NCBI GenBank assembly: GCA_035583445.1
Contig: DATEYD010000039.1
Span: forward strand, 1 to 59,678
Reading direction: 5' to 3'
DNA length: 59,678 bases
Source: Minisyncoccota bacterium
GTDB taxonomy: Bacteria; Patescibacteriota; Minisyncoccia; 2-02-FULL-40-12; GWA2-44-9
In this document: piece after piece, positions 1 through 25,125 of the stretch
Numbering within the stretch: the stretch's first letter is position 1
How the letters are laid out: the number at the start of each line of letters is the position of its first letter
The notes under the pieces: model-generated
The model's database searches: none
Seen by the model: only the letters and a program-made list of their open reading frames with translations
Told to the model about the DNA's origin: nothing
Position numbers and translations under genes: made by a program

Positions 1-3000
1 ACCTCACCGTCGCATCCGCAGGCTTCTCCACCACCTGGAACGGCAACTTCTCCCACATGCAGGGGAACGTGGGGATCGGGACATCAGCACCCTTCGCCAA
101 GCTCACAATCTCAGGCGGCGGTCTGGCATCCGAGAACCTCATTCTCGCCTCCAGCTCCGCCTCCATCCTCGCTCCCGTCACCGGCTTTGCGGGGTATACC
201 CAGTTCTCCGGCGGCTTAGGTACCGGGGGCACCGACTCGACGACAGCGGCGTTCCGACTCACGAATACCGGCAACTTGGTGAACATCGGCGCCATCCAGG
301 CAGGCCAGACGCTCCTGACCAGAGGCGGTACCTTCGCTACGGCGGTGAACTACTCGACCGGATTGGGTGCCTACAGCGTCGCGCTTGCCGACCTGAACGG
401 CGATAACAAGCTGGACGCCGTCACTGCGGACAACAGCGGCCCGGACACCGTCACCGTGCTCCTCAACGACGGTAGTGGCGCCTTCCCGGCCTCAACCAGC
501 TACGCGACCGGTCTGGACCCGGTCAGGGTGGCTGCAGCGGATCTGACCGGAGATGGCAAAACCGACCTCGTGGTCGTGAACAACTCCGGGAACTCCGTAT
601 CGGTGTTTCGGAACAATGGCGGCGGCACTTTCGCCGCGAAGACCGACTACGCGGTAGGGGGAGGTCCGTGGTCTGTCGCGCTCGGCGACGTGAACGGTGA
701 CGGGAAAGCCGACATCGCCGTTACGAACATTTCTGATACCACGGTCTCCGTGCTCTTGAACAACGGGGACGGCACCTTCGCTGCGAAGGCTGACTACGCA
801 ACGGCGTCCGGCCCGGCCGGGGTCGCGTTGGCTGATGTCAACGGGGACGGAAAAGCCGACCTCATCGTGTCCGATGTGAATGTGCATCTCGTCTCGGTTC
901 TCCTGAACGACGGGGACGGCACCTTCGCCGCCAAGGCCGACTACGGGACCGACACGAACCCGTACAGCGTCGCGGTGGCGGACGTGAACGGCGATCGCAA
1001 GATCGACATCGTCACGGGCAACAATTTCGGCGGGAGCGTCTCGGTCCTCCTGAACCTTGGTGATGGCACGTTCGACACGAACATCGATTACGCCACCAAC
1101 GGAAGCCTCACGGTCGCCCTCGCCGACTTCGATGGCGACGGCACGCCCGATATCGTCACCCAGAACGACGGCGCGAGCAACGTTTCCGTGCTGCTGAACG
1201 ACGGAGATGGCACCTTTGCCGCCAAAACGGACTACGCGACGGATACCGCCCCCTACGCGATCGCCGCCGCCGACGTCAACGGGGATGGGAAGCCCGATAT
1301 CGTCAGCGCGAACCTCGGCGGCACGATATCGGTCCTCCTGAACCAGGCCTCCGTGCTTTTCTATGCGCAGGTATCCTCGGGCAATGTCGGCGTTGGGACC
1401 TCCAGTGTTACGGATGCCAAACTGGAGGTCGCCGGCACCGCCAGCATTTCCGGCTTAACGCTCATCAACAACTCCGCCTCCGTCTCCGGCAATTTCGAGC
1501 TGGGAGGCACCGTCTCCTCCAATTGGATCCCCACCATCGACAACACGTACTCCCTGGGCACCTCGGCATTGAAGTGGTCCAACCTCTTCGCCACCAATGC
1601 CTCGGTCTCGAGCACCCTGGAAGCCAACATCGCCTCCGTCTCGCAGCTGTACATCGGCGGCTCCGCGTTCCTCCCCGGCGTCTACGCCTCGATCTCCCAG
1701 AACTGGGACCCCAACGGCGATAACCTGTACTCCCTGGGTGACTCCGCAAACCGATGGAAGGACCTGTATATCTCCTCCGGCTCCCTCTACATCGGCATGA
1801 CGGGTGACGAGGCATCGGTCAGCTACCATCCCACCGCCGACGAATTCCGCGTCAACATCCTCGGCACCCGTGCGCTCGCAGTCGACGCAGGCGTCCGCTA
1901 CAGCGCCGCACTCGGGTTCGGTGCGCTCAAATCGGCGACGGGGACCGCGAACACCGCCGTCGGCTACGGCGCCCTGACCTCGGACACCACGGGTGCGAGC
2001 AACACCGCGGTCGGCTTCTACGCGCTGTACGCGAACACGACCGGGTCCGAGAACAACGCCTTCGGCATCCAGTCGCTCCAGAGCAACACCACCGGCACTA
2101 AGAACGTTGCCATCGGGAATCTCGCGCTCTTCCAGAACGCGACTGGCTCCTACAACACAGCGGTCGGTCTGACGGCTCTCCGGGCGAACACGGGCGGCCA
2201 GAGCAACACGGCGCTCGGGTTTGAGTCCCTGATCAGCAACACGATTGGCGACTACAACTCCGCGGTTGGCCGTGACACGTTATACGAGAACACGACCGGG
2301 AGCTACGGCGTTGCCATAGGGTACGGAGCCCTCTACAACAACACGACCGGCCAACACAACGTGGCCGTCGGCTCAGGCGCGCTCCGCTCCGTCACGACCG
2401 CGGGCGACAACCTCGCGCTCGGAGCCAGCGCCGGATACAGCGCACTGGGCTCCGGCAATGTCTTCATTGGCCGCTCTGCCGGCTACGGCGAGACCGGCTC
2501 AAACACGCTCTGGATCGAGAACTCCAACGTCGCCTCATCCTCTGCTCTGATCTACGGCGAGTTCGACAACAACTACCTCTCGTTCAACGCAAATACCTCC
2601 ATCTCCGGCAACTTCGAGCTGGGAGGCACCATCTCCTCCAATTGGATCCCCACCATCGACAACACGTACTCCCTGGGCACCTCGGCGCTCCGCTGGCGTG
2701 ACCTGTACCTCGCCTCCGGCTCGCTCCACATCGGCACCGACGGGGATGAAGCCATCATCGACTACAACGTCAACGATGATTACCTCGCGTTCAAGCCGGA
2801 CGGCACGGTCAACCGTCTCCAGCTCTTCGACACTGGTGCTGCATCACTGTCGAATACGTTGTACGTGACAAGCGGGGGTAATGTCGGTATCGGAACAACA
2901 GCTCCAGCAGCACGGCTCTCGGTATTGGGACCGAATGCAGGACCGATCCAGAACTGGCTCAGATCATCTGACAGCGGTGTTCTCGGGTACGTCATGGATG

Positions 3001-6000
3001 GAGGACAGGGTGCGGGACCCGGTCTCGGGTTCACATCATCCGGACATACGACATTCGTCAATCCTTCGGGATATGGCACGTTCTTCTCCGGCGGGTCGGT
3101 CACCATCGATACCGCCTACAACGGCTCGCAATCGCTGCTCGTCGACTTATCGTACTCCGGCATCGCAGCCGCGAAGGGGATTGTCGTCAAAGGCGCTGCG
3201 AACCAAACCGCCGACCTCCAACAATGGCAGAACAACAGCGGTGTCACGATGGCGAGCATCAGCGCTGCGGGCGCGCTCGAAATCGGGGTTGATATGGAAG
3301 CCGCGTCGAAGAGTCTGATCCTCAGACCGAATACTCCAAACCTCTATGGTTCGAAGGACCAGTATGCTCTGTACGTGGATATGTTGGGAACCATTAACCA
3401 CGGCCTCTACACGAGTCGCGTCATGGATGCAATCAGGGTGCAGAGCCAGAGCGTGTATGGCACTGGTGGGAGCGCCCCCTCGTTCCGTGTGACCCAAGCT
3501 GGATCGGTGATCATCTCGCCCGACACTGGCTATTCGAATACCACATCGAATCCGAGCTATGCGCTCAGGGTGGCGCCTGTTTCCAACGGCACCTATTACC
3601 CAACCGTCGATTACGATGTGCTCCAGATCGTTGCAACTAACTCGGCGTATGGCCTCTACACGACCGCTGAGATGCGTATGCTGCGCGTCAAGGATCGCTA
3701 TGACGGTGAGGCGTTCGTCGTGAACAGCCTCGGTAATGTTGGTATCGGGAAGCTGTATCCGACCGCGGATCTCGACGTGCTTGGGAATGCGTCAATTTCC
3801 GGCACGTTCCAATTGAACGGGGACATGCTCGCCTCGCATTCAGGGAATGTTGGCATCACGCTGAACTCCACCACTTCTGATGACGCGAAGTTCGTCATCC
3901 AAGCAACGGGTGCTTCAGATCGCCTAGATATCCTGGGGTCCGCATCGCAATCGCTTCTCACCATCCTGAAGAACGGCAACATCGGCATCGGTACCACGGC
4001 CCCGTACGCCCCGCTCTCGATCGAGGCTCCACGCGTGGCTACTGGTGCCGGTACGTTCCTCACGATGCGCGGCCTCTCAAACGGTGCACTCTGGTCGTTC
4101 GCCGAGGAAGTCGACAGTTCGTTCACGATCGGGTTGGACGCTGAAAACAGACACATCATAGAGCTAACCTATACCGGGAACGCATCGATCTCAAACGCAA
4201 TCTGGGCATCAAACGGGGGGAATGTAGGCCTTGGTACCACGAGCCCGACGCTTGGCAGGCTGCAAATCGAGATGCCGAATGCCGCAAATGGGAACTTCAT
4301 CTCCTTCAAACAGGTGTCGAATGGGGAAAACTGGGCGATTGCCGACAAGAACAGCGGCAACCTGGTGATCCGGGACGTGTCGGCGACGCGCAATTTGATC
4401 GAGTTCACAACCGCCGGTATCGCCTCGATATCAAACGTGATGGTGGTTCAGAATGCTGGCAACGTCGGCATCGGCACGAGCAACCCCACATCAGCGCTGC
4501 ATATTGTCAGCAATGCAAGCACACTCCTAAACGTTGCTTCGGGTTCGAATTCCCGCTTGGTAGTGCTCGAGAATGGAAACGTGGGAATCGGGACGGCAAC
4601 CCCTACCTCGACACTGAATGTGAACACATCGGCAGCGAACAGCGATTTCGGTCTCGTCCTGAGTGTCGTGGGCACCGAACGAATCCAACTCAATCCCTAC
4701 GATGCCGGAGGAGCGACCCGCATTAGCTTTACTCCGATTTCTGCGAATGCGGCGGTCATTGATTCATCTGATGATCTACGACTAGCGCCGGCGTCCCATC
4801 TCAATATCTCGTCGGGCTCGAACCTCTATGCACGATTCAACGCAACGACCCAGGGCTTCGTGGTCGGCGGCAACTTCTACAGTATCAATCCGCCGACTTG
4901 GGGCGCAATCATTGAAGGCAATGTTGGCATCGGCACCTCCAACGTCGATCAGAAGCTCGAGATCGCAGGCACCGCCAGCATCTCCGGCCTGACCCTGATC
5001 AACAACTCCGCCTCCATCTCCGGCAACTTCGAGCTGACCGGCACTGTCTCTTCGCACCTCATACCGACAACCCATGACGCATTCGATCTAGGCAGTACGA
5101 CGAATCGCTGGAGGGATCTCTACCTTGCCTCCGGTTCTCTGCACATCGGCACCGACGGGGACGAAGCCGTCATCGACTACAATGTCAATGATGACTACCT
5201 GAGCTTCAAGCCGGACGGGACGACCACTGCAATGTCCATTTCCGACAACAGTACCGTCGGCATCGGCACCACGGCTTCTACCAGCCCCCTCTCCGTCTTC
5301 TCCTCGGCAGCCTCCGGTGTCTCCGATGTTCTCACTATCGGCCATCTGACGACCGAGCTAGGCTTCACCGTGGATGGCGGCGGTACGCTGACCGACAACC
5401 TCATAAGTTACTGGAAGCTGGACGAAAAGAACGGCACCCGAGCCGATAGTATTGGGACGAACCACCTCACCGACAACAACACGGTGGGGGTGAGCTACCA
5501 GGGGCCGACGGGGACAGTGGCAAATTTCGTCGCGGCGAACAGCGAGTCTCTCATCAATGCATCCGTGTTAGACAGCTTGGCGGGAGAAGATGCAACATTT
5601 CTCTACTGGTACTACCCAACGTCCAGTGGTCAAGTTTGGATTGCGGGCGGTAGTGCTGGTGGATGGAACAGTTCTTTCGAGATGTACCACAATAACACGG
5701 CATACACTGTCGCTTTCTACGACGACAATGAAGGACTGAACGAGAGGGACTACATCGGCCATCAGTCCCCATTAGGCCTCAATCAATGGCACTTAGTTGG
5801 GTTCACCTACGATAATTCCACGAAGACTAGCACCGTTTTCCTCGACGGGGAGGAGAGCAATACGACTTCAGTTCTCACTAATGGGATCAACTGGGACGGT
5901 GCTCCCGACTTCAATCTTGGCGGAGGTCCAATCTTTGATTACGAGACGCATAAAAGCGGTCCAGCCGCGTTCTGGAACAGGGTTCTCTCCACAGTGGAAT

Positions 6001-8867
6001 TAGATGCCCTCTTTAACTCCGGAAAAGCGAAGACGTACGCGGAGCTCACCGCGGCAGAAAAGGCGGGACTCGTCTCCTACTGGAACATGGACGAAGTCTC
6101 GGGCAACCGCGCAGATTCTTACGACTCAAACGACCTTAGCGACGTGAATACCGTCGGTAGCGCAACGGCTGTCGCCGGCGCGATGCACAACGCCGCGGCG
6201 AGCTTTGTGGCGGCGGGCAGTGAGTACCTGTCACTGAACACAGGTCTCAATTCCACGGTGAAAACCACCTCGATGTGGATTTACACGACCACGCTTGCAG
6301 AAACCGAATTCCCGCTCACCTTCCAAGATGACGCAGGCCACTATGCATATCACTTTCAAGTGTATGGTGGGGCGTTCCATTTCTACGTCGAAGGGGTGGA
6401 CAATCCCATCGTCGCGTCTTCTATTACCACTGACGCCTGGCATCACGTCGTCGCGGAGCTGAATCAGACCGCGAAGACGCTCAAGATGTGGATTGACGGA
6501 ACGCAGGTGGGCGGGACCGTCACCTACACCACTGGTACGCCGTACACGGCAACGAAAATGGCGATCGGGACGCAGCCTGTATCCCCGGGCTACTACTGGC
6601 AGGGTCTTGTCGACGAAGTCGTTGTCTGGTCCCGCGCCCTGACCCCGACGGAACTTTCCAACCTCTATAACGCAGGAGCGGGCAATACACTGCAGTTCGC
6701 GCCTGTGGACAACGCGATGCTCTTCCGGTCCACGAACAGCGGCCTGGCCGTCTCCGATGTCGCCCGCATCAATGCGCTCTTCACGGACGCCACCGACGGC
6801 TCCGAGACATCGGCATTGACCTTCCAGACGCGCAGCGCCGGTTCCGCGCTCCAAGAACGCTTGCGCATCGACAGCGACGGCAATGTCGGCATCGGAACAA
6901 CTTCACCTGCGGCGAAACTGCACATCACGGGGTCTACCACCGGAAGCGGCGCGACCGCTATCGGAGCCCTGTCTATCGCTGCCAACCTGACGAACAGCAC
7001 CGCAAGCGGGTTCCAATTCGGTGAGCAGCACATCTTCACGGTCGACGGAACAGTAGCGGGGACCGAGGAGGGCGTGCTCATCCGTATGATCGATAACACC
7101 TCGCTTTCCAACACCGTCCGCGCATTGGAGGTGCAGGCGTACTCGGGAACCAACACATCAGGCGTGAACACCGCTATCGCGGCGTTCGGTAGGACGTTCG
7201 GTATTCAGGGCACTACCGATGCAACTGCAGCTGCTGATACCGTTCCTGCCGCTATATTCGCGTATCTGGATAACCAAGCAGTCCCGACCACGGGGAACGC
7301 GATCCGTGCCTATACGGATCATGCGACTGCGGCGACGCTGGTCCATTTCGTCCAAGCATCCTCGTCATTCAGCGGCACCGGGCTGCTCATGAACTTCGCC
7401 ACCGGCGGCGGGACATTCACCGGCAAGTACCTTGATCTCCAGAGCGATGGCACGACAAAATTGTCGATCCTCGCATCTGCGGCGATGGGCATCGGCAACA
7501 CGACACCCGCTGCCGGCATGATGCTGGACGTCCAGGGTCGCGTGCAAGTGAACCTCACCGGCACTCAGGCGACCTACGCGGTCTGTCACGGGACAAACGG
7601 GCAGAGCAGCGATCAGGAGCTAGTAGACTGCAATCCAACTGCCGACGCTGACTACATGGAAATGTATCCGTTCGAGACAGATATCCAGGAGGGCATGATC
7701 GTCGTGCCGAGCTCCGTTTCGTTCGTGACCGCGAACAACAATAGCCTCGTACCGAAATTGCGGGCGGCCACCCGACCATATGACAGCACACTCATGGGTG
7801 TCGTGTCGGTCGCAAGCCAGGCCGGGGAATTCAACAGCATCGGGCACAACATCCCGGCCGGAGCGAACCCGAAGCCGATCGCCCTCAAGGGGCGCGTGAA
7901 GGTGCTCGTGTCCTTGGAGAACGGACCGATTCGTGTAGGGGATCGCATCACCTCATCCAACATCCCAGGTATTGGTATGCGTGCCACGCAGTCTGGACAG
8001 GTCATCGGTATGGCACTCGAACCGCTCTACGTGGTGCCCTCCGGGTCGTATGCCGAGGTGCTTGTATTCGTGGATGTTGGCTACTGGGCGCCCAGTATCG
8101 ATGAGGAGCTCGCATCCTTGGCGAGCGAGAGTAGCGATTCCGGCAGCCTAAGCTCTAGCTTGGATACGATCTTTAACGCCATCGTCGGATGGTTCGAAGA
8201 CACACTAAATATCACGCTCCAGAGCGGCCTTGTGAAGTCGGTCACGGGGTGGTTTATCGAGGTACGGACCGAGAAGCTCTGTGTGGGGAGTACCTGCGTC
8301 GACGAGGCTCAGCTGAAGTCGCTCCTCGAAAACGCAAATATTACGCCACTTCCGACACCAACCCTGGCCCCTGAAGGTTTGAGTATCTCGTCCTGTGAGG
8401 TGGGGGATGAATGGCAATGGACGATTGTGAATGGGGATGCGAGTGATACCACATTCAACTGGCAGCTTGGCCCCACACTCGCGAGCATCTCAGGACAAGG
8501 GACAGTACGGGCCGGAGACAGTACGAGCTTCCTGACTATTCCGTACCCGTCCGATCCCTTCATGTACGTAGCTCCCGTTGGCGAAATGTACGGAACGGGT
8601 ACCGCGTTCCAGTACGGAGTGTGCCCAGGGACAACTACTACAACTCCTACGAGTACCGTATCCCCGACATCAACACCAGAGTCCACGCCCTCAACGACGA
8701 TAGAGCCGACACCTGAAGCAACAACCGAACAGACGCTGGAACCTACGCCTGAGCCGACATCATCACCCACACCCGAGACGACCCAAGAGGTGACCCCTGA
8801 ACCCACCCCTGAACCCACCCCTGAACCCACCCCTGAACCAACGCCCGAGCCGACCCCAAAGATATAG
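1..8867 (+). CDS. giant surface protein, 5' partial (FG-GAP/VCBS propeller, tail-fibre-like repeats, two LamG/ConA-like lectin modules, PT-rich tail)
   Basis: ORF 57..8867 (2936 aa). The frame stays open back to base 3 (LTVASAGFSTTWNGNFSH before the first M), so the gene probably starts upstream of the window. It has seven ADVNGDGKxD FG-GAP-like blades and 13 GNVGIGTxxP collar motifs. It also has NTAxGxxALxxNTTG 14-15 aa repeats. Two modules with SYWK/NxDE...WHxV...VDEVxVW resemble LamG. The C-terminus is TPEPTPEP. Confidence 0.85.
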   Translation, partial: LTVASAGFSTTWNGNFSHMQGNVGIGTSAPFAKLTISGGGLASENLILASSSASILAPVTGFAGYTQFSGGLGTGGTDSTTAAFRLTNTGNLVNIGAIQAGQTLLTRGGTFATAVNYSTGLGAYSVALADLNGDNKLDAVTADNSGPDTVTVLLNDGSGAFPASTSYATGLDPVRVAAADLTGDGKTDLVVVNNSGNSVSVFRNNGGGTFAAKTDYAVGGGPWSVALGDVNGDGKADIAVTNISDTTVSVLLNNGDGTFAAKADYATASGPAGVALADVNGDGKADLIVSDVNVHLVSVLLNDGDGTFAAKADYGTDTNPYSVAVADVNGDRKIDIVTGNNFGGSVSVLLNLGDGTFDTNIDYATNGSLTVALADFDGDGTPDIVTQNDGASNVSVLLNDGDGTFAAKTDYATDTAPYAIAAADVNGDGKPDIVSANLGGTISVLLNQASVLFYAQVSSGNVGVGTSSVTDAKLEVAGTASISGLTLINNSASVSGNFELGGTVSSNWIPTIDNTYSLGTSALKWSNLFATNASVSSTLEANIASVSQLYIGGSAFLPGVYASISQNWDPNGDNLYSLGDSANRWKDLYISSGSLYIGMTGDEASVSYHPTADEFRVNILGTRALAVDAGVRYSAALGFGALKSATGTANTAVGYGALTSDTTGASNTAVGFYALYANTTGSENNAFGIQSLQSNTTGTKNVAIGNLALFQNATGSYNTAVGLTALRANTGGQSNTALGFESLISNTIGDYNSAVGRDTLYENTTGSYGVAIGYGALYNNTTGQHNVAVGSGALRSVTTAGDNLALGASAGYSALGSGNVFIGRSAGYGETGSNTLWIENSNVASSSALIYGEFDNNYLSFNANTSISGNFELGGTISSNWIPTIDNTYSLGTSALRWRDLYLASGSLHIGTDGDEAIIDYNVNDDYLAFKPDGTVNRLQLFDTGAASLSNTLYVTSGGNVGIGTTAPAARLSVLGPNAGPIQNWLRSSDSGVLGYVMDGGQGAGPGLGFTSSGHTTFVNPSGYGTFFSGGSVTIDTAYNGSQSLLVDLSYSGIAAAKGIVVKGAANQTADLQQWQNNSGVTMASISAAGALEIGVDMEAASKSLILRPNTPNLYGSKDQYALYVDMLGTINHGLYTSRVMDAIRVQSQSVYGTGGSAPSFRVTQAGSVIISPDTGYSNTTSNPSYALRVAPVSNGTYYPTVDYDVLQIVATNSAYGLYTTAEMRMLRVKDRYDGEAFVVNSLGNVGIGKLYPTADLDVLGNASISGTFQLNGDMLASHSGNVGITLNSTTSDDAKFVIQATGASDRLDILGSASQSLLTILKNGNIGIGTTAPYAPLSIEAPRVATGAGTFLTMRGLSNGALWSFAEEVDSSFTIGLDAENRHIIELTYTGNASISNAIWASNGGNVGLGTTSPTLGRLQIEMPNAANGNFISFKQVSNGENWAIADKNSGNLVIRDVSATRNLIEFTTAGIASISNVMVVQNAGNVGIGTSNPTSALHIVSNASTLLNVASGSNSRLVVLENGNVGIGTATPTSTLNVNTSAANSDFGLVLSVVGTERIQLNPYDAGGATRISFTPISANAAVIDSSDDLRLAPASHLNISSGSNLYARFNATTQGFVVGGNFYSINPPTWGAIIEGNVGIGTSNVDQKLEIAGTASISGLTLINNSASISGNFELTGTVSSHLIPTTHDAFDLGSTTNRWRDLYLASGSLHIGTDGDEAVIDYNVNDDYLSFKPDGTTTAMSISDNSTVGIGTTASTSPLSVFSSAASGVSDVLTIGHLTTELGFTVDGGGTLTDNLISYWKLDEKNGTRADSIGTNHLTDNNTVGVSYQGPTGTVANFVAANSESLINASVLDSLAGEDATFLYWYYPTSSGQVWIAGGSAGGWNSSFEMYHNNTAYTVAFYDDNEGLNERDYIGHQSPLGLNQWHLVGFTYDNSTKTSTVFLDGEESNTTSVLTNGINWDGAPDFNLGGGPIFDYETHKSGPAAFWNRVLSTVELDALFNSGKAKTYAELTAAEKAGLVSYWNMDEVSGNRADSYDSNDLSDVNTVGSATAVAGAMHNAAASFVAAGSEYLSLNTGLNSTVKTTSMWIYTTTLAETEFPLTFQDDAGHYAYHFQVYGGAFHFYVEGVDNPIVASSITTDAWHHVVAELNQTAKTLKMWIDGTQVGGTVTYTTGTPYTATKMAIGTQPVSPGYYWQGLVDEVVVWSRALTPTELSNLYNAGAGNTLQFAPVDNAMLFRSTNSGLAVSDVARINALFTDATDGSETSALTFQTRSAGSALQERLRIDSDGNVGIGTTSPAAKLHITGSTTGSGATAIGALSIAANLTNSTASGFQFGEQHIFTVDGTVAGTEEGVLIRMIDNTSLSNTVRALEVQAYSGTNTSGVNTAIAAFGRTFGIQGTTDATAAADTVPAAIFAYLDNQAVPTTGNAIRAYTDHATAATLVHFVQASSSFSGTGLLMNFATGGGTFTGKYLDLQSDGTTKLSILASAAMGIGNTTPAAGMMLDVQGRVQVNLTGTQATYAVCHGTNGQSSDQELVDCNPTADADYMEMYPFETDIQEGMIVVPSSVSFVTANNNSLVPKLRAATRPYDSTLMGVVSVASQAGEFNSIGHNIPAGANPKPIALKGRVKVLVSLENGPIRVGDRITSSNIPGIGMRATQSGQVIGMALEPLYVVPSGSYAEVLVFVDVGYWAPSIDEELASLASESSDSGSLSSSLDTIFNAIVGWFEDTLNITLQSGLVKSVTGWFIEVRTEKLCVGSTCVDEAQLKSLLENANITPLPTPTLAPEGLSISSCEVGDEWQWTIVNGDASDTTFNWQLGPTLASISGQGTVRAGDSTSFLTIPYPSDPFMYVAPVGEMYGTGTAFQYGVCPGTTTTTPTSTVSPTSTPESTPSTTIEPTPEATTEQTLEPTPEPTSSPTPETTQEVTPEPTPEPTPEPTPEPTPEPTPKI
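1476..1624 (+). repeat. 149-nt cassette, near-identical to 23248..23396 (2 mismatches by hand alignment)
   Basis: Direct reading shows gcctccgtctccggcaatttcgagctgggaggcaccgtctcctccaattggatccc... at both sites. It encodes SVSGNFELGGTVSSNWIPTIDNTYSLGTSALKWSNLFATNASVS. Confidence 0.9.
8793..8852 (+). repeat. tandem 12-nt coding repeat (acccctgaaccc, 4 copies plus 1 degenerate) encoding TPEP
   Basis: Read directly. Units lie at 8793, 8805, 8817 and 8829, with a degenerate unit at 8841. Confidence 0.85.
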
Positions 8868-8911
8868 AACAGCCGCATAAATAGTCGCATATTATATAGT
8901 CCCGATTTACG

Positions 8912-8955
8912 TCATTCGTGAGTAATAGACAGATTATCCACAAGTTCATTCGTGA
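8912..8955. promoter_or_regulatory. two direct copies of TCATTCGTGA, 34 bp apart, upstream of the PaaX-like gene (candidate operator)
   Basis: Copies lie at 8912-8921 and 8946-8955 in an AT-rich gap. The motif resembles the TGATTC half-site I recall for E. coli PaaX operators; this is from memory and unverified. Confidence 0.3.
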
Positions 8956-9014
8956 CGAAACGCTAAATCAGCCAGAATCGTCACATTGGTTGATGTATCT
9001 ACTGACACAGATCG

Positions 9015-9042: not shown

Positions 9043-9049
9043 CACGCTT

Positions 9050-9910: not shown

Positions 9911-9911
9911 C

Positions 9912-16900: not shown

Positions 16901-17134
16901 CCAGTGATGACGACCATCATTCCGAAACCCGTTTGTCCTACGAACTGTCGGCAACTTGGCCTGTACGAGCCAGGGGAGGTGACTGAGACAGGCTGCACAT
17001 CGCCCGGGCCGTGGGGGTACAACACCTGCCTGCGTTCTGATCCATCGGTGACATGCAAGACGATTCATCGTGCCGCAGGTCCAAATTGCTACGTGCCAAA
17101 CCAACATACAAACTACTGCTTCAGATGCCCGTAA
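13976..17134 (+). CDS. NHL-repeat surface protein (about 12 blades), one WDLC repeat, Cys-rich C-terminus
   Basis: ORF 13952..17134. The ATG at 13976 forms an ATGA overlap with the upstream stop; the alternative start is 13952. There is a TM segment after the start. I count 12 motifs of the type LFVADSxNxRVxVFD. The protein ends with an 8-Cys tail. Confidence 0.85.
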   Translation: MKIRHHNPLHIVAVAGLVMVLVAAYQDPDLSRYLVHWPGTGHADFSEDATDVLGQVDGADTPYFTVNGVDNQPNARSMGLAFSVAIDAVGHRLFATDSLGNNRVLVFNLDVNNQLTDSIADAVLGQPDFKSNDPDLSISGLDESSAVAYDPDTQLLYVEDMNNARIVVYDVTSITNGEDAVYVIGQDSFTEFDGFQTTAWHFDFSGGLPGHLAIDSEGGRLFVADSDGERVLVFDVSLANLASEANGLDDGILMNAEYVIGQPDFDTAEGGLVDIQTTNLPLGVAFLASDSQDLLFVADSGNHRILVFDVTPGTLVNQPNAIRVLGHSDFDTQTNGTSSTEMWVPAGLSIDESGPRLFIAERDNNRVTVFDISSIDNGEAAVGVLGQEDLDSNGAQVASDGFEWPYGIAYDGTSSRLFVADSSNRRILEFDVATVINGEEAVGGLGHLDESDSMVFTTSSTTNPQGMNTNNGSTGVALDDTNHRLFVSDSLNARVLVFELDVDNTPVDHTADFVLGQPDFFTIDAGVTQTKLTLPLGLAYDPTNDRLFVADSASHRVMVFDTAAITNGEGAINVVGQLDFSSSDFSVDQIHLNNPSGVAYDPTTDRLFVADTDHNRVMVFDADPAVLIPNVTNGPLAVNELGQDDSDESGDYYDTSNSATSLLGMSSPIDVTLDEGEQRLFVSDRDNNRVTVFDVDTTVLIPDDDPDNGTNGPNAINVLGQPDFSSWSSCGTPDASCFDTPNGIFYDAATGDLLVADYNNNRILEFSAASGSLSNDDDAVEVWGQPDFATNDGHSTTQSGFSSPTSVVRGSPMYVVDGGNNRVVIFGTVSSTPTPGGQIGNPIYYPPGYTGFFPIRITVNDDDSSTDSRNVIVQVYADFTDSFAGTVDLMLSNVPDFSTFLPFRYVINNAVSDRLAWPKTISWDLCFGLPADQPCNPGQKTVYARFYPNIPQPTPARITPTPILRVSPTATLTPTPVMTTIIPKPVCPTNCRQLGLYEPGEVTETGCTSPGPWGYNTCLRSDPSVTCKTIHRAAGPNCYVPNQHTNYCFRCP

Positions 17135-18980: not shown

Positions 18981-19259
18981 ATGCCAGTAGAGCATAACGC
19001 ACATCGGCTCATACGATCGGCCGCCATTGTTAGTGGTTCTGTAGTTGTGATCGTCGGAGTATACGCCATGACCGGAGCAGGCTCGACGCAACCTCCGGAC
19101 GTGCCAACTGTAGGAACGTATCGTGATCAATCATCAATATTCGATGCTATCGCAAGTGAGACGTACGATTCCTCATTGATTACTGCCGATCCGAACGGCA
19201 GCGCGTTCGAGATCGCGAAATGCATCATCGGGAAGATTACAGGAGGATCATGTCCATAG
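18981..19259 (+). CDS. small membrane-anchored protein resembling the N-terminal cassette of the 21577 gene
   Basis: 92 aa with a TM segment. IFDAIASETYDSSLITADPNGS here compares with IFDSVASDSYDSSGITADQNGS in the 21577 product. Confidence 0.5.
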   Translation: MPVEHNAHRLIRSAAIVSGSVVVIVGVYAMTGAGSTQPPDVPTVGTYRDQSSIFDAIASETYDSSLITADPNGSAFEIAKCIIGKITGGSCP

Positions 19260-21580
19260 CGAAAAAGCACAATCGTACGTGGACTGCTATCGGAATTGCT
19301 ATAGCCGTATTGGCGATTCCAGGCATGATTGTCGCGCTGAACATAGACTCGACCTATAAATACGCGTGGGGTGAGAATATTGGGTGGATCAATTTCGGTA
19401 CCTCCGAAGGCGACGTGGACGTGTCCACGACGGACATCGACGGTTACGCATGGGGTGAGAATGTGGGATGGATATCGCTGACGTGCGACAACACATCGAG
19501 TTGTGGAGTGGTAAACTATGGGGTCACTCGTTCGGGAGACGAACTTTCCGGATATGCATGGGGAGAAAATGTCGGATGGATATCGTTTGCGTGTGAGAAC
19601 ACTTTATCGTGCGGTACCGTCGATTACGGTGTCGAGGTTGATTCAATTACTGGTGATTTTTCCGGTTATGCATGGGGTGAGAACATCGGATGGATCATCT
19701 TCAATTGCGAAACAACGTCGTCGTGCATCGCCGTAGACTACAAGGTGAAAACCAGCGCAACTGCCACGCCGACACCAACGACAAGTTCTCCGCCGGGCGT
19801 TCCTCCAATTATGTTGCCTCCTCCTGCAACGGCGACACCAACCGCAAGTGTGACACCAACTGCTTCGCCCACGATATCGGTAGCACCCACTGTAATACCA
19901 ACGACAACGCCGACAACGACACCGTCTGTATCTCCAATAGTGACTCCTACGACCACGCCGCCGCCGGCTACGCCAACAACTGCACCATCGCCGACAACCA
20001 CCGTACCGCCAACTGAGCGTCCGCCAACCGAGGTCATCGGTAGAGGACTAGATGTCGCTGCTCGGGCGATATTCGGTGTCATTGGCGCTATTGTGGGTGG
20101 TATTTCAGACGCATGCGATGACAGCGCAGTACAGACAGGCGCGTGCGGAGCGACCGCGGTTAGCTCGCTGATAGCAGTTCTAGGAATCGTTGCCATGCTG
20201 CTCCAACAAGAGGTTGCTGCCGCCACGTTTTCGATGCTGCAAGTCGTCGGTCTGAAGAAGCGCGCTCGCGTATGGGGAACAGTCTATGATACACGCACGA
20301 AGCGTCCCGTACCGCTCGCAAAGACCGAACTCTTGGATGCCGTGGGTCGCGTTCTTGAAACGCGGTATGCGGATCGGGATGGGAGATACGGATTCTTGCT
20401 ATCGCCCTCGATGCTCCATGCGGGAGAACAGGTACAAATTTCGATCCGCGTCGCGAAGCCAGGATTCCATTTCCCTTCCTCGCTCATCACCTCAGGTACG
20501 GATTACTTCGTCTATGACCATGTCTACCAGGGCGGATCGATCTCGGTTCGTTCCGATTCGGCTCTCACCTTCAATATTCCGATGGATTCAACCGCGAGCT
20601 TCCGCGCCGGCCTGAGCGGCTTCGGGCGCTCGATGACCGGTCCGCTCATCGACCGCATACTGAACCTCGGCTTCTACGCCGGTCTCATATTGGTGCCTCT
20701 GAACTTGTATCTGGTTCCCAACACGAAGAACCTCATCATCCTCATCGTATTCCTTGCCGCGAACCTCTTCCGCCTTTTGGCGCATTTCCGACCATACGGC
20801 ACTACCATCGATGCAAGAACCGGCCAGCGGCTGGCGTTCGCGCTCATTACATTGAATGAACCTGATGGCGGACGCGTTACATTCTCCGTGTCTGACGAAT
20901 TCGGGCGCTACATTCTGTCCGCCGAAAAGGGGCACGAATACGACCTCGTCGCACATACACCTGCCAATGTCAGCCCGCAGCGGGAGACTCGTGAACGCAT
21001 TCGCCTGAAATCCGGATGGATGACGCAGACGATTGTTGTCGGCAAGAGTGAGCTGCAGGCTCCGCCCAGACCCCCAGCCCACGCTCCGCCACCGCTGTCC
21101 CCATCGATTTCGTCGGCACCTCAACCTTCAACAGGGCCGTCGGGTCTTATCCTGTCGGTGCTGTTCTTCCTATTTGCCATCGGATTTTCTGCTGGCCGGC
21201 CTCGTCTTCCGGTCGGGGCTATGGCCGAGGGGGTCGATGAGGTATACGCGCTGATGCACCCAAACGTCGCCGCAATTGCTGAGGTACTTCGTGAGAATAC
21301 GCCACTGATCGAGATCCTATCGCTCATCGCGACCGCGACGGTCCTTGCCGGAGCTATTCTGGCTGGACGCGAGGCGCTCAGGAATTGGCTGCGTGGACGT
21401 CAGTCGCAGATGCATAAAACAACCCGGACCATCGGGACAACCGCATTTGTTATCGGTGTGATCGTCGTGCCGATGGCATATCTGTTGAATCCTACAACAG
21501 GTCGCGCTGTGCTAGGCATCGCGTTCCTTGCGGTATCCGGCATTTGGGCTCATGCAAAAAGAAAACTCATCCGCATATGA
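19250..21580 (+). CDS. membrane protein with four GYAWGENxGWI Cys-containing repeats, a PT linker and a C-terminal TM plus double CarboxypepD_reg-like module
   Basis: ORF 19220..21580. AGGAGG at 19241-19246 favours the ATG at 19250. It contains the motifs RARVWGTVYDTRTKRPVPLAKTELLD and RPYGTTIDARTGQRLAFALITLNE, and several C-terminal TM helices. Confidence 0.8.
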   Translation: MSIAKKHNRTWTAIGIAIAVLAIPGMIVALNIDSTYKYAWGENIGWINFGTSEGDVDVSTTDIDGYAWGENVGWISLTCDNTSSCGVVNYGVTRSGDELSGYAWGENVGWISFACENTLSCGTVDYGVEVDSITGDFSGYAWGENIGWIIFNCETTSSCIAVDYKVKTSATATPTPTTSSPPGVPPIMLPPPATATPTASVTPTASPTISVAPTVIPTTTPTTTPSVSPIVTPTTTPPPATPTTAPSPTTTVPPTERPPTEVIGRGLDVAARAIFGVIGAIVGGISDACDDSAVQTGACGATAVSSLIAVLGIVAMLLQQEVAAATFSMLQVVGLKKRARVWGTVYDTRTKRPVPLAKTELLDAVGRVLETRYADRDGRYGFLLSPSMLHAGEQVQISIRVAKPGFHFPSSLITSGTDYFVYDHVYQGGSISVRSDSALTFNIPMDSTASFRAGLSGFGRSMTGPLIDRILNLGFYAGLILVPLNLYLVPNTKNLIILIVFLAANLFRLLAHFRPYGTTIDARTGQRLAFALITLNEPDGGRVTFSVSDEFGRYILSAEKGHEYDLVAHTPANVSPQRETRERIRLKSGWMTQTIVVGKSELQAPPRPPAHAPPPLSPSISSAPQPSTGPSGLILSVLFFLFAIGFSAGRPRLPVGAMAEGVDEVYALMHPNVAAIAEVLRENTPLIEILSLIATATVLAGAILAGREALRNWLRGRQSQMHKTTRTIGTTAFVIGVIVVPMAYLLNPTTGRAVLGIAFLAVSGIWAHAKRKLIRI
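19361..19750 (+). repeat. coding tandem repeats (36-38 aa units) with the pattern GYAWGENxGWIxxxCxxxxSCxxVxY
   Basis: Four copies can be read in the translation: YAWGENIGWINFG, GYAWGENVGWISLTCDNTSSCG, GYAWGENVGWISFACENTLSCG and GYAWGENIGWIIFNCETTSSCI. Confidence 0.8.
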
Positions 21581-24500
21581 TGCCTCCTCCCTCCCACTCC
21601 CTGAACAAGGCATCCCTGGCCGCCTTCCTCTCGGTCCTGGTATTGGCCGTGGCGACCTCTGCCGGCTCCCTGACCCCCTCGGCATTACCCGACTCTACGA
21701 TGCACACCCTGGAGGAGATCTTCGATTCGGTCGCCTCAGATTCCTACGATTCCTCAGGAATCACGGCAGATCAGAACGGCTCCCTCCTGGCCAACCTCAA
21801 GTACATCAACTCCCAGCTCGGGTGGGCCTCCGTATCCGGTGACCTCTACTTCCTGGGCACCGGCAACGTCGGGATCGGGGACACCACGCCGGAGACGGAG
21901 TTCGAAGTCCTCGGAACCGCATCGGTGTCAAGCCTCTACATTGGGGGAGTGCTCTGGAACCCTGCGGGGGCGTCATCCCTTTCCGCGACACTCGAGATCA
22001 CTGGTGACGGCACCATCGACATACTGAAGCTCACCGAATCGGACTCCGCGAAGTCTTACGGGCTCGTTGTTCGCGATGGCGACCTCTTTGTTCGAGCGCC
22101 GAGTACTTCGGATGCGTTCTCCACGCACTGGAACGTGTTGTCAGTTGCCTCGAATTCTCTGGCAACTACTTTAGGGACGCCGGCCTCTCCGGTGCTGGTC
22201 GGATCCCGTGTGAACCCGCTCGGCAACAATGTATATGCCGCATACGTTTCGGGAAAATATGCGTACACAGCACAATCAACCGGACTCGTGGTTATCGATA
22301 TATCAAATCCCGCGTCACCGTCCATGGTGGGTACCACCACCATTGGCGGACTGGGTCTCGATGTCGTTGTTGCCGGCCAATATGCCTACTTAGCGAACGA
22401 TTCGAATGGGCTCGTCATCTTTGATGTCTCAAATCCAGCAGCTCCAATATTCGCGGGGCAATATGATTCATCGGGAGCTGCTCGGGCCGTCGATGTATCC
22501 GGAAGGTACGCTTACCTTGGTCATGATTCCACGATCAGCGTTATTGATATCTCCAATACATCAAATCCTATAGTGGTGGGCACGGTTGGCGCATCCGGAT
22601 CAATTAATAGCGCGACCGTTCATGGTTCCTATCTTTTTGTCGGGGCAGGCGCAGCAGGCCTCGATATCGTTGATATCTCGGAACCGACAAATCCAATGGT
22701 TGTGACGACATACGATACATCCGGATTCTGTCAGGAGGCTGTCGTCGTCGGTCGATACGCATACGTTGCTGACTTCGGTGGTGGTCTCGTGATTCTCGAC
22801 GTTTCCGATCCAACGAATCCAACATTAGTGACCGCCCTTGCAACAGGCGGAACCCCCACGAGTGTCGTGGTCGCCGGAAAATACGCATACGTTGCTGATC
22901 AAGATGGCGGACTCAAGATTATCGATGTCAGTACGCCCAGCACCCCCTCGATCGTTGGAACGATCAATATGTCCGATGGGTCTGAGGACGACGTCTTTGT
23001 TGCCGGGCGATATGCATATGTATCCAACACGAGTCCGGGAAACGGTGGCTTCCATATCGTTGACGTAGGGGGCCTCCAAGTACATGCGCTTGATGCAGGT
23101 AGCTTCAGCGCGAACAGTATTGCGACATGGAATGATGTCGATATTGGCAATAACCTGCTTGTGCGCAACGGGCTAAACGTCGGCGCGGGCGGATTATTGG
23201 TGAACGGATTTACAGGATTTGCCAGTGCGTCATGGTTCGGTTCTCACGCCTCCGTCTCCGGCAATTTCGAGCTGGGAGGCACCGTCTCCTCCAATTGGAT
23301 CCCTACCATCGACAACACGTACTCCCTGGGCACCTCGGCATTGAAGTGGTCCAACCTCTTCGCCACCAATGCCTCGGTCTCGGGCACCCTGGAAGCGAAC
23401 ATCGCTTCGGTGAGCCAGCTGTACATCAATGGAAGCCTGTTTTCGCCGGCGTCGGCCGGAGGCTGGACCGACGATGGGACGGTTGTTCGCCTCACGACCA
23501 TCACCGACAACGTCGGCATCGGGACGACGACGCCCGGATACAAACTCGAGATCGGCACCCCGGGCGACATCAATCTTGCATCGTCAGGGGCGGCATTCCG
23601 TATCGCGGGCTCCAGTGTTCTCAGTGTGAAGGGGTTGGGAAACACTTGGGTAGGCGTTGGGCCGGGAAGTGCCAATACCACCGGCTACTGGAACACGGGT
23701 ATCGGCTACCAATCTCTGGACACCAACACGACCGGACACGGCAATATCGCCATGGGTTATCAGGTGTTGACCGACAATACGGACGGACACTGGAATACCG
23801 CGATCGGCTACCTGGCGCTCGGTGACAACACCACAGGAGCGGGAAACAGCGCCTACGGCTTCCAGGCGCTCATGGCCAATACCACCGGTTCCTACAACAT
23901 CGCCATCGGCAATGCAGTCGCTACTTCCAACACCACTGGCTCTCACAACGTCGCCATCGGTTACGCTGCGTTCCAAAACAATATTTCAGGACATGAGAAC
24001 GTCGCGATCGGTGATGCTGCTCTTCGTCTCACCACGGGCTCCGACAACCTCGCGCTCGGAGCCAGCGCAGGATACAGCGCACTAGGCTCCGGCAACGTCT
24101 TCATCGGCCGTTCTGCCGGCTACTCCGAGACGGGTTCCAATCGGCTCTATATCGACAACTCTGATACCGCGACCCCGCTCATCTACGGCGAGTTTGACAA
24201 CGACTATCTCTCGTTCAACGCCAATACTTCCATCTCCGGCAACTTCGAACTTACTGGTCTTGCTTCTATCAGCGGCGGCGTCTATTTCACAAATCTGGCA
24301 TCAACCGGTGCCGGATACAACTTCGTCTGCCGTGATCCTGTTACGGGCATCATTACTCATGCAGCGACATGCACTCCCTCGGCTCTACGTTTCAAGGAGA
24401 ACGTTCAGGACCTAACCCATGGATTGGATTGGGTCTCCCAGCTTCGTCCGGTCACATTCGATTGGAAGCACAGCGGCGAACCCTCTCTCGGCTTCATCGC

Positions 24501-25125
24501 CGAAGAGGTCGCCTCGGTCAGCCCGTTGCTTGCCCTCTATCAGGAAGGCGAGATCTTCAGCGTGAACTACCAAATCATGACCGCGGTCCTCGCGGGGTCC
24601 ATTCAGGAGCTGGCGTCACGACAGTACCGGTTGGAAGAGTTGATGGCGATGCAGACCGGAATACGAACAGAGGAATCAGGCAATTCCGCACTTTCGGGTC
24701 TCTTCTCCTCTATTATCGGCATGTTCAAAGACCTTCTGGGCATCGGATTCGAACAGGGAAGCATTCAGGCTGATCGAGTGCGTGCGGATTCCGTCGAGCT
24801 TGAGACCGGCGTCACCATCAAAGACCGATCTACTGGTGGCTACTACTGTCTCCAGATGGTGGACGGCATCCTGCGCACCATCCTTGGTCCTTGTGGTTCG
24901 ACGACTCTTGAACCGACCCCATCGATTTCAACTCCTGAGCCATCACCCATAACAGCCGAAACCCCGATCTCATCGGAATCTCCGGTTCCCTCGGATATAA
25001 CGGAACCAATCTCCGCTCCCGAGCTCACCCCCAAACCGACGCCCGAGCCCACTCCGGAGCCTACCCCCGAATCGGCCCCAGAACCAACTCCCGAACCAAC
25101 ACCCGCAGAGGACCAATCTTCGTAA
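21577..25125 (+). CDS. tail-fibre-like surface protein (LVIVD propeller, NTAxGY repeats, Peptidase_S74-type intramolecular chaperone, PT-rich tail)
   Basis: ORF 21544..25125. The first ATG, at 21577, forms an ATGA overlap with the upstream stop. There are about 7 LVIVD blades (GLVIFDVSNPAAP and similar). SALRFKENVQDL...GFIAEEV matches the S74 chaperone signature. The C-terminus is TPEPTPEPTPE. Confidence 0.85.
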   Translation: MMPPPSHSLNKASLAAFLSVLVLAVATSAGSLTPSALPDSTMHTLEEIFDSVASDSYDSSGITADQNGSLLANLKYINSQLGWASVSGDLYFLGTGNVGIGDTTPETEFEVLGTASVSSLYIGGVLWNPAGASSLSATLEITGDGTIDILKLTESDSAKSYGLVVRDGDLFVRAPSTSDAFSTHWNVLSVASNSLATTLGTPASPVLVGSRVNPLGNNVYAAYVSGKYAYTAQSTGLVVIDISNPASPSMVGTTTIGGLGLDVVVAGQYAYLANDSNGLVIFDVSNPAAPIFAGQYDSSGAARAVDVSGRYAYLGHDSTISVIDISNTSNPIVVGTVGASGSINSATVHGSYLFVGAGAAGLDIVDISEPTNPMVVTTYDTSGFCQEAVVVGRYAYVADFGGGLVILDVSDPTNPTLVTALATGGTPTSVVVAGKYAYVADQDGGLKIIDVSTPSTPSIVGTINMSDGSEDDVFVAGRYAYVSNTSPGNGGFHIVDVGGLQVHALDAGSFSANSIATWNDVDIGNNLLVRNGLNVGAGGLLVNGFTGFASASWFGSHASVSGNFELGGTVSSNWIPTIDNTYSLGTSALKWSNLFATNASVSGTLEANIASVSQLYINGSLFSPASAGGWTDDGTVVRLTTITDNVGIGTTTPGYKLEIGTPGDINLASSGAAFRIAGSSVLSVKGLGNTWVGVGPGSANTTGYWNTGIGYQSLDTNTTGHGNIAMGYQVLTDNTDGHWNTAIGYLALGDNTTGAGNSAYGFQALMANTTGSYNIAIGNAVATSNTTGSHNVAIGYAAFQNNISGHENVAIGDAALRLTTGSDNLALGASAGYSALGSGNVFIGRSAGYSETGSNRLYIDNSDTATPLIYGEFDNDYLSFNANTSISGNFELTGLASISGGVYFTNLASTGAGYNFVCRDPVTGIITHAATCTPSALRFKENVQDLTHGLDWVSQLRPVTFDWKHSGEPSLGFIAEEVASVSPLLALYQEGEIFSVNYQIMTAVLAGSIQELASRQYRLEELMAMQTGIRTEESGNSALSGLFSSIIGMFKDLLGIGFEQGSIQADRVRADSVELETGVTIKDRSTGGYYCLQMVDGILRTILGPCGSTTLEPTPSISTPEPSPITAETPISSESPVPSDITEPISAPELTPKPTPEPTPEPTPESAPEPTPEPTPAEDQSS
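23248..23396 (+). repeat. partner copy of the 149-nt cassette at 1476..1624
   Basis: Hand alignment gives 147 of 149 identical positions. The flanks on the 5' side are unrelated. Confidence 0.9.
24379..24645 (+). other. predicted intramolecular chaperone / autoproteolysis domain (Peptidase_S74-like); candidate cleavage Ser codon at 24379
   Basis: PSALRFKENV resembles the S-D-x-R-x-K-E-N signature of endosialidase/tail-fibre chaperone domains. It is followed by LDWVSQLRPVTFDWK and GFIAEEVASV. Confidence 0.55.

Follow-up and report, generated by a model that had tools for sequence, protein, structure and literature searches.

The DNA analysed here (the window) covers positions 1 to 59,678 of contig DATEYD010000039.1 from a Minisyncoccota bacterium (assembly GCA_035583445.1), and this report concerns its first 25.1 kb, which encode giant and large proteins of the exported type, some of them assembled from parts of phage tail fibres, beta-propellers and lectin-fold domains. 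A previous sequence-only reading had assigned about 22 of these 25 kb to six plus-strand proteins lying in two runs of overlapping open reading frames (ORFs). The six genes, designated P1, P3, P4, P6, P7 and P8, are indeed present and add up to about 22.25 kb, and their frames, sizes and start codons match the NCBI gene calls, which on the near-identical contig CAYPIP010000008.1 (GCA_964410885.1; 2 mismatches to the window over about 24 kb, 24,000 bases) give 1355, 1052, 776 and 1182 aa for P3, P4, P7 and P8. However, a gene for a PaaX/Cas2-like protein and the gene for 2,3-bisphosphoglycerate-independent phosphoglycerate mutase (iPGM) are located inside the same region, which therefore holds eight plus-strand genes. 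The overlaps are also real (P3/P4, 4 nt; P4/iPGM, 10 nt; P6/P7, 10 nt; P7/P8, 4 nt), but the run from 9912 to 18699 closes with the housekeeping iPGM, which had not been listed. Coordinates of all genes and domains are given in Table 1.

Table 1. Genes and domains at the locus in window coordinates; numbers with the prefix L designate related loci and those with P followed by four digits related proteins.
Feature	Position	Strand	Basis or remark
P1, giant exported protein, 5' end cut by the window	3..8867	+	At least 2954 aa in the window; Pfam and PHROGs matches
P1, seven-bladed FG-GAP/VCBS (PF13517) beta-propeller	300..1337	+	Pfam FG-GAP_3, 7 stretches, E 4.6e-52; 147-nt direct repeats
P1, tail-fibre/tail-spike-like module, mosaic copy of that of P8	1374..2882	+	phrog_4636 tail spike, E 6e-18; phrog_19602 tail fibre
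P1, array of GNVGIGT-headed modules, about 80 aa each	2877..5282	+	Motif positions
P1, two LamG/concanavalin-A-like lectin-fold domains	5385..6707	+	Pfam Laminin_G_3 (PF13385), 2 stretches, E 2.1e-24
P1, C-terminal domain, fold of the phage beta-tulip/pre-neck-appendage (phi29 gp12 C-terminal) type, candidate auto-chaperone	7620..8102	+	AlphaFold2 model and Foldseek
P1, C-terminal tail: conserved C-x-G-x-x-C-V segment, small Cys-containing domain, Pro/Thr-rich low-complexity end	8100..8864	+	Read from sequence
PaaX/Cas2-like putative regulator	9050..9661	+	Pfam PaaX_M, E 2.5e-20; same place in L005, L006, L026/L027
P3, 1355 aa	9912..13979	+	Identical protein in GCA_964410885.1
P3, membrane module, last 336 aa: two helical hairpins (4 predicted transmembrane helices), each followed by a transthyretin/CnaB-like beta-sandwich	12969..13976	+	Pfam CarboxypepD_reg
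P4, 1052 aa	13976..17134	+	Pfam NHL; orthologues in L002, L003, L027
iPGM (gpmI)	17125..18699	+	TIGR01307, E 6.6e-154; conserved backbone
P6, 92 aa, signal peptide and N-module only	18981..19259	+	Homologous to P8 residues 1-90
P7, 776 aa	19250..21580	+	Orthologues 50-52% identical in L002, L003, L006
P8, complete phage-fibre-like protein, 1182 aa	21577..25125	+	Pfam, PHROGs, NCBI call
P8, signal peptide (h-region, then T-S-A followed by G) and conserved N-module	21577..21861	+	Read from sequence
P8, LVIVD beta-propeller, about 7 blades	22219..23076	+	Pfam LVIVD (PF08309), 6 stretches, E 1.9e-68
P8, tail-fibre/tail-spike-like stalk with NTAxG beta-helix repeats	23194..24321	+	PHROGs virion structural, tail-spike and tail-fibre families, E 3e-34 to 4e-13
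P8, Peptidase_S74 intramolecular chaperone domain	24364..24681	+	Pfam PF13884, 39.8 bits (cut-off 22), E 5.7e-10
P8, post-chaperone tail: Cys pair, Pro/Thr/Glu-rich end	24682..25122	+	Read from sequence; analogous in P0024, P0033
LytR_C-domain membrane protein, downstream backbone gene	25231..25938	+	Pfam LytR_C, E 2.4e-7; beside LeuRS in L004, L005, L006

The relationship of P8 to phage proteins is evident from a tblastn search with residues 540-1060, in which tail-fibre or tail-spike genes of 178 GenBank phage records were detected at 27-33% identity. C-terminal to the tail-spike/tail-fibre-like region (residues 540-915), P8 carries the Peptidase_S74 domain, whose PF13884 match corresponds to residues 948-994 of an 1193-aa reading of P8 and is covered as well by tail-fibre and baseplate families of PHROGs. 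The predicted scissile residue Ser935 (24379-24381) and Lys940 (24394-24396) are found in the segment Ser935-Ala-Leu-Arg-Phe-Lys940, the S-x-x-R-x-K pattern is conserved across seven aligned proteins possessing LVIVD and S74 domains, and the spacing between the two residues (S+5=K) equals that of the catalytic pair of phage T5 pb1, scissile Ser1264 and Lys1269 (PMC4690869). If S74 cleaves, the post-chaperone tail of P8 would be freed. A homologue search with full-length P8 was swamped by LVIVD matches from unrelated lineages, S74 being present too in 6 among the 120 matches listed, and sequence searches of PDB with P1, P8 and the S74 segment of P8 gave no useful match. When IMG/VR was scanned for close viral sources of the P8 fibre, three distant loci only were obtained and therefore no evidence of a recent acquisition from phage.

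P1 shares its tail-fibre/tail-spike-like module with P8, residues 492-880 of P1 and 558-897 of P8 being 54% identical overall. In the 5' flank of this module 60 of 61 residues are identical and the DNA at 1475-1655 and 23247-23427 is 95% identical over 181 nt; the flanks are near-identical, and the core of beta-helix repeats between them is divergent, a pattern which resembles the mosaicism familiar from phage fibre genes. The two differences between the window and CAYPIP010000008.1 are at positions 6896 and 23304, and the latter falls within the 95%-identical segment, where gene conversion, or reads mis-assigned between the paralogous segments, may have caused it.

The frame of P1 is open to base 3 of the window and on the NCBI contig is still open at base 1, corresponding to a protein of at least 3147 aa. 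Its propeller displays seven loops of the Ca-binding type, [AG]D[LVF][NDT]GD..[LTAIP]D, and a loose pattern detects 13+2 = 15 GNVGIGT motifs; no Pfam family matched the GNVGIGT array, even with cut segments as query. Both counts, like the two LamG modules and the S74-type chaperone, had been given by the sequence-only reading and were reproduced by profile or motif searches. The 12 NHL and about 7 LVIVD blades it had counted likewise match their profiles (NHL, PF01436, E 1.5e-49), strict regular expressions recovering 9 cores in P4 and 5 units in P8, and inspection by eye, with degenerate copies included, about 12 and about 7. The LamG and VCBS domains of P1 point to ligand binding, carbohydrates being candidate ligands. 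Its tail-fibre/tail-spike-like module also gave a match to Pfam End_tail_spike which is weak, below the cut-off and limited to profile positions 93-158, that is, to the stalk motif only. Apart from this match, a Pfam search with cut segments of P1 and P8 for Peptidase_G2 or other families gave just chance-level matches.

At its C-terminal end P1 contains a domain for which only 8 sequence homologues were found among 5.8 billion clusters. An AlphaFold2 model of this domain has a core with a predicted local distance difference test (pLDDT) score of 85-95, and a Foldseek search of BFVD with it returned a 'Preneck appendage protein' (E 1.9e-10; template modelling score, TM-score, 0.59). In PDB the best matches were phage beta-tulip decoration-protein trimers (E 1e-4), and the C-terminal fragment of phi29 gp12 (3gqh, E 3e-3) and 3suc (E 2.7e-2) were recovered with low TM-scores. 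The models suggest that P1 ends in a domain resembling a phage-type auto-chaperone, similar to phi29 gp12 by fold. In L006 and L027, LVIVD proteins with a P8-type N-terminus terminate in the same tulip-type domain instead of S74, so that the two domains are positionally interchangeable, and from this position they may be functionally equivalent. A tail of the P1 type is also present behind the C-terminal domains in L005, L006 and L027.

The N-terminus of P8 consists of a basic n-region, a hydrophobic stretch, the residues 'A-T/S-A' followed by 'G-S-L-T-P', and then a module of about 65 aa (..TM.TL.EI..IAS..YDSS..A..NGSL..LK.I), referred to as the N-module, with the consensus GSLTP..P..TM.TL.EIF..ASxxYDSS..A..NGSL in P8. 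Signal peptide and N-module are common to P8 and P6, to the two giant proteins of L027 and to the pair of giant ORFs in L006, and a profile search of 1.84 billion proteins placed the N-module at the N-terminus of at least 20 protein clusters among the best 150 matches, with sizes from about 100 aa (P6-like) to 2239 aa. As the profile had taken in 327 columns from P0024 and most of its 8051 matches are modules of the GNVGIGT type, only matches to profile positions 1-100 were counted. From its likeness to the virion-binding N-terminus of tail fibres, the N-module might be the cell-proximal docking end of these proteins. P6, which consists of little else, is uncalled in the NCBI record of the same DNA, yet it is 44-49% identical at the same position in L002, L003 and L006; it could act as a cap, competitor or docking partner, or serve as a cassette for recombination.

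In P8 and its homologues, and in P6, the AxA-type site, read from the sequence, suggests cleavage by signal peptidase. With signal peptides of this type, P8 and P6 would more probably be freed from the membrane and kept in place by some other means. All products had been said to start with a hydrophobic anchor or signal and to be membrane-anchored. As to the starts, that of P1 lies outside the window, and P8 and P6 begin with what appear to be cleavable signal peptides, not anchors, ahead of the N-module. As to the anchoring, it is not supported for most of the proteins, stable attachment to the membrane being predicted solely for P3 and P7, via a polytopic module at their C-termini.

P3 and P7 contain neither phage parts nor a propeller. 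Behind a signal or anchor, P3 has an Ig/fn3-like ectodomain of about 1000 aa with 4 'WDLC' repeats, a Pro/Thr-rich linker and the C-terminal membrane module. P7 likewise starts with a signal or anchor and has 4 YAWGENxGWI repeats, a Pro/Thr-rich linker, a paralogue of the P3 membrane module and extra C-terminal transmembrane helices, and P0166 from a Parcubacteria metagenome-assembled genome (MAG) shows the same architecture. The AlphaFold2 model of the membrane module (mean pLDDT 82) displays two helical hairpins, the first of low confidence, and two sandwiches, which in Foldseek match CnaB/transthyretin-like stalk domains of Gram-positive adhesins and pilins. The presence of two hairpins would place both sandwiches on the side of the ectodomain. 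Most homologues of this module stand alone as proteins of 310-360 aa, those few with names being from Patescibacteria, and it occurs fused to three types of ectodomain, Ig-like (P3), YAWGEN repeats (P7, P0166) and LVIVD/Big_13 (L028). P4 consists of a signal or anchor, two propellers formed by its NHL blades, one WDLC Ig-like domain and a Cys-rich C-terminus. The Ig-like repeat of about 100 aa, ending in 'W-D-L-C ... V-Y-A-R-F', is common to P3 (4 copies; 10014-12971) and the C-terminus of P4 (1 copy; 16700-17134) and has no Pfam family; the Cys-rich tail of P4 comprises about 65 aa with 9 Cys. Two sequences from other samples, L105 (ENA ERZ28563994) and L106 (ERZ4902897), are 99.6-99.7% identical to window positions 8024-12965, from the end of P1 through PaaX to P3. 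The alignment with L105 ends at the Pro/Thr-rich linker of P3 and the gene called there stops at 1030 aa. Ectodomain and membrane module of P3 may be separate proteins in that population, or the assembly may be broken in the low-complexity linker.

The region was compared among relatives using iPGM as anchor, in five GTDB species representatives and in L026/L027. In the five representatives the frame is PaaX - membrane module - iPGM - P6 - P7 - LVIVD protein(s) - LytR_C - LeuRS - KhpA. Within it, giant-gene content differs strongly: in L004 iPGM is directly followed by LytR_C, in L005 the membrane module is represented by about 270 aa only and ORFs bearing LamG are present, L006 has one LVIVD protein of 1110 aa and another of about 2000 aa encoded in a 2057-codon open frame, and in L002 and L003 the order of P3 and P4 is inverted. 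On the 562-kb contig of L027 the order is RsmI-MetRS-TatD-[2239 aa LVIVD]-[1803 aa LVIVD+S74]-PaaX-[P3-like]-[NHL]-iPGM, which supplies the housekeeping upstream border missing from the window itself. In L028, proteins with LVIVD and S74 also lie beside the membrane module, but the context differs, being between pyruvate kinase and PPDK. In many Patescibacteria loci the membrane module adjoins iPGM, frequently with an overlap, and in L028 its link is likewise to genes of lower glycolysis.

In a survey of 31 metagenomic loci of at least 8 kb each that contain the membrane module, iPGM adjoins it in 11, and of the 10 closest loci 9 are among these; the N-module occurs in 5 of the 31, and S74, the tulip-type domain and LVIVD in 3 each. 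From these counts it is evident that the membrane module and iPGM belong to a backbone and that the fibres are variable cargo. The backbone consists of the PaaX-like regulator, the polytopic membrane module with its two transthyretin-like sandwiches, iPGM, the LytR_C protein and LeuRS. The locus is thus conserved in related MAGs with variable giant-gene content, and the single coherent 'super-locus' apparatus envisaged by the sequence-only reading gives way to a mosaic. A role of the membrane module as a dedicated base for the fibres was considered as well; as co-location is partial only, this is a weak possibility and is not claimed.

The rest of the window is ordinary chromosome, with genes for LytR_C, LeuRS, KhpA, TrmD, 16S rRNA, RNase HII, GAPDH, a split transketolase and two tRNAs, a type IV pilus cluster and a two-component system. 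Across all 59.7 kb, no gene for capsid, terminase, portal, tape-measure, integrase, sheath, tube, baseplate, lysis or any other virion function was found. The best iPGM matches (62-69% identity) are to MAGs titled Candidatus Paceibacterota or Candidatus Saccharibacteria. The 16S rRNA gene (30939-33260) ends at 32350 according to Rfam (1412 nt, compared with a model of 1533 positions), its conserved 3' motif AAGTCGTAACAAGGcA follows at 33228-33243, and an ORF for a LAGLIDADG homing endonuclease (32649-33077) is located in between. An insertion of about 0.9 kb thus appears to interrupt the gene close to its 3' end; insertions in rRNA genes are among the features described for the candidate phyla radiation (CPR) (PMC11270868). 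No 23S gene lies behind the 16S gene, the two being unlinked here. The nearest genomes, the 16S insertion and the 562-kb contig of a relative support an assignment to the CPR/Patescibacteria, in agreement with the small CPR-type genome that had been supposed.

Domain content, genomic context, the conservation of an island with variable content, the sharing of modules between P1 and P8 and the retention of the Ser/Lys pair of S74 are directly supported by these results. The explanation we favour, with a probability of roughly 0.6, is that the region is a chromosomal island of Patescibacteria for surface proteins, in which a conserved backbone is combined with variable cargo including self-processing fibres of phage style, and that adhesion to a partner cell is its most likely role. 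A first class of cargo (P1, P8 and the mini-protein P6) would represent cell-encoded copies of the plan of phage receptor-binding proteins, in the order Sec signal peptide, N-module, propeller and/or LamG, tail-fibre/tail-spike stalk repeats and C-terminal auto-chaperone. After export by the Sec pathway, the C-terminal chaperone (S74 in P8, the phi29-gp12-like beta-tulip in P1) would nucleate trimerisation and afterwards remove itself by self-cleavage, taking the Pro/Thr-rich tail with it (in P8 the cut would fall before Ser935), and the N-module would retain the fibres at the envelope. The propeller and LamG domains would be the ligand-binding parts. In a second class (P3, P7), long ectodomains of Ig-like type or of repeats would be fixed in the membrane by the C-terminal four-helix module, and in a third kind (P4) a signal or anchor would precede a pair of NHL propellers. 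Displayed on the surface, the fibres might bind glycans or proteins of a partner or host, and their modules might be swapped like those of phage receptor-binding proteins. Adhesion to a partner is the most economical role because the organism is likely episymbiotic, and the finding that surface proteins with VCBS (PF13517), fn3 and dockerin domains are essential for epibiotic growth of Southlakia (PMC10633639) points in the same direction. The domain content, the variability between relatives and the analogy with adhesins of Saccharibacteria suggest a role in host attachment.

Several points weigh against this explanation. The structure models obtained with AlphaFold2 are monomers, whereas trimers are postulated, and the N-terminus of P1 lies beyond the left edge of both contigs. 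For the C-terminal domain of P1, TM-scores are moderate (0.45-0.6), the isolated segment gave no Pfam match at E<=1, Peptidase_G2 included, and tblastn gave no match among GenBank phages. If the signal peptides are cleaved, none of the elements identified here would hold P1 and P8 on the cell, and docking of the N-module to a partner in the cell envelope is proposed by analogy. In the 31 loci the link between membrane module and fibre genes is partial and adjacency to iPGM much stronger. Finally, propellers of the FG-GAP, NHL and LVIVD families occur widely in generic surface and S-layer-type proteins of free-living organisms.

This last point leads to a different explanation, namely that the products are generic envelope or S-layer-type proteins serving integrity, nutrient capture or abiotic attachment instead of host recognition, in which the phage-like parts are a mere scaffold for trimerisation and folding. 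Free-living cyanobacteria, archaea and numerous further lineages indeed possess surface proteins with LVIVD, NHL or FG-GAP domains in abundance, the membrane module and iPGM are conserved even where no fibre gene is nearby, and the sandwiches of the module resemble stalk domains of Gram-positive surface proteins. However, giant-gene content varies strongly between relatives sharing the same frame and the paralogues are mosaic, which fits recognition proteins evolving under diversifying pressure better than a structural layer; in addition, the LamG lectin fold and VCBS point to ligand binding, and in Southlakia the proteins with VCBS and fn3 domains are essential specifically for epibiotic growth. 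A purely generic function is therefore considered unlikely. Improbable to a higher degree is that the proteins are surface-displayed glycan-degrading or predatory enzymes, depolymerases which open the capsule or cell wall of a host. The repeats match PHROGs named 'tail spike' and, weakly, Pfam End_tail_spike, the layout of P8 mirrors that of an endosialidase (endoNF), and propellers of the NHL and SGL type include lactonases and other hydrolases; nevertheless, neither Pfam nor PDB sequence searches gave a significant match to a sialidase, pectate lyase or glycoside hydrolase, and the End_tail_spike match covers the stalk motif only and is below the cut-off.

The true homology to phage tail fibres and spikes and the presence of two phage-type C-terminal chaperone domains could also be accounted for by a degraded prophage, tailocin or tail-fibre region of an extracellular contractile injection system without cellular function. 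This is largely refuted and retains very little probability: the ORFs are long, intact and provided with Sec signal peptides, which to our knowledge phage fibres lack, genes for a sheath, tube, baseplate, capsid, terminase, portal or integrase are absent from the window, and related species with an iPGM just 62-69% identical carry this island flanked by the same housekeeping genes. Moreover, only the three distant relatives were found in IMG/VR, and identities to phage genes do not exceed the 27-33% given above. That the region does not look like a prophage tail module had already been noted from the sequence alone, and the signal peptides, the absence of virion genes in 59.7 kb and the housekeeping flanks, which recur in L027, agree with this.

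Endosialidase endoNF of coliphage K1F is composed of an attachment module, a beta-propeller, a stalk and a C-terminal S74 domain. P8 has an N-terminal module, propeller, stalk and S74 with its Ser/Lys pair in the same order as endoNF and other S74 tail spikes; unlike them, it is chromosomal, without virion genes, has a Sec signal peptide, an LVIVD instead of a sialidase propeller, and a tail of about 150 aa with a Cys pair and Pro/Thr-rich sequence behind the chaperone. With T5 pb1 it has in common a long fibre ending in S74, with Ser and, five residues downstream, Lys (Ser935/Lys940 in P8, where cleavage is predicted), but P8 is cellular and, in place of the bullet-shaped receptor-binding domain of pb1, possesses a propeller. 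The C-terminal domain of P1 may resemble phi29 gp12 and beta-tulip trimers in fold, and it ends a fibre/beta-helix protein where paralogues carry S74; in contrast to gp12, it lacks a match to Pfam Peptidase_G2 or to GenBank phage sequences, its TM-scores are moderate and no cleavage site was identified in it. The NTAxG repeats had been described as being of YadA-head or tail-fibre style. The second part of this description is borne out by tail-spike and tail-fibre PHROGs, which match with E-values of 3e-34 to 4e-28 in P8 and 6e-18 in P1, and P1 and P8 are, like trimeric autotransporters of the YadA family, elongated, adhesin-like and presumably trimeric, with short Asn/Thr/Gly-rich repeats; however, they have no Pfam Hep_Hag/YadA_head, YadA_anchor or C-terminal beta-barrel, and their C-termini are chaperones with Pro/Thr-rich tails.

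Proteins with S74 domains are already known from cells. MYRF and MrfA are described as eukaryotic membrane transcription factors with an S74-type ICA domain that undergo trimerisation-dependent self-cleavage (PMC3742443, PMC8326128), and they offer a precedent for the cellular take-over of a phage module of triple beta-helix and S74; in MYRF an intracellular transcription factor is freed by cleavage, whereas P8 is an exported-type protein from which the chaperone and tail would be freed. Many proteins are annotated as 'tail fiber domain-containing', for example P0057 from Babeliales, and giant adhesin-like proteins are expected in the CPR. The Southlakia proteins SEML1_0891 (VCBS), 0890 (fn3) and 0315 (dockerin) are from the same superphylum, are predicted to be located in the envelope and contain glycan-binding-type domains, and both 0891 and the P1 propeller belong to PF13517 (formerly VCBS); this likeness is at the level of the Pfam family, and the published description of the set does not include tail-fibre or S74 parts. 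In the literature searched, we found no earlier account of Patescibacteria proteins with S74, LVIVD or tail-fibre parts, nor of the domain combination, the N-module with its P6-type mini-protein, the interchangeable gp12-like domain, the membrane module or the iPGM-linked island.

Apart from type IV pili and some adhesins of cultivated Saccharibacteria, little is known of how ultrasmall episymbionts find and hold their hosts. A more far-reaching proposal, which is possible but at present doubtful, is that episymbiotic Patescibacteria have domesticated the whole design of phage receptor-binding proteins as fibres for host recognition, with a docking module at the N-terminus, propeller or lectin 'tips' that can be exchanged, a trimeric stalk and, at the C-terminus, one or the other of two chaperones that remove themselves, with cassettes swapped in a recombination-prone island to adjust host range and with the N-module and P6 forming a new system for docking to the envelope. 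If trimeric, self-processing surface fibres are indeed formed, they would constitute a second, modular device for host recognition and a bacterial case of cellular take-over of S74 and gp12-type auto-chaperones, and the gene content of the island in metagenomes might then permit predictions of host range, as is the case with phage receptor-binding proteins. The N-module, the C-terminal domain of the P1 type and the membrane module with four helices and two sandwiches, for which Pfam has no dedicated family, provide three handles for experimental work and annotation.

A scan for promoters and terminators in the interval 8-26.2 kb gave counts at or below the shuffled expectation and was not used. 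Between trmD and the 16S rRNA gene, a minus-strand ORF (29498-30685, 395 aa) encodes a beta-rich protein with a clear signal peptide, whose end, ...SLSVSF, resembles the C-terminus of outer-membrane proteins, unexpected in a presumed monoderm. This protein had no match in Pfam or PDB and its exact sequence is not on record in the gene collection, and an exact look-up of LeuRS likewise gave no entry; a 429-aa Arg-rich plus-strand ORF overlapping it looks spurious. The type IV pilus cluster is encoded on the minus strand (41834-52724) and adjoins the two-component system. It includes a 664-aa fn3-like protein, a 485-aa protein without family, PilC, a PilB ATPase with an N-terminal response-regulator receiver domain, and a pilin-like protein of 581 aa that combines N_methyl with CarboxypepD_reg, the family of the sandwiches in the membrane module of P3 and P7; it is followed by a stand-alone receiver and a histidine kinase with seven transmembrane helices.

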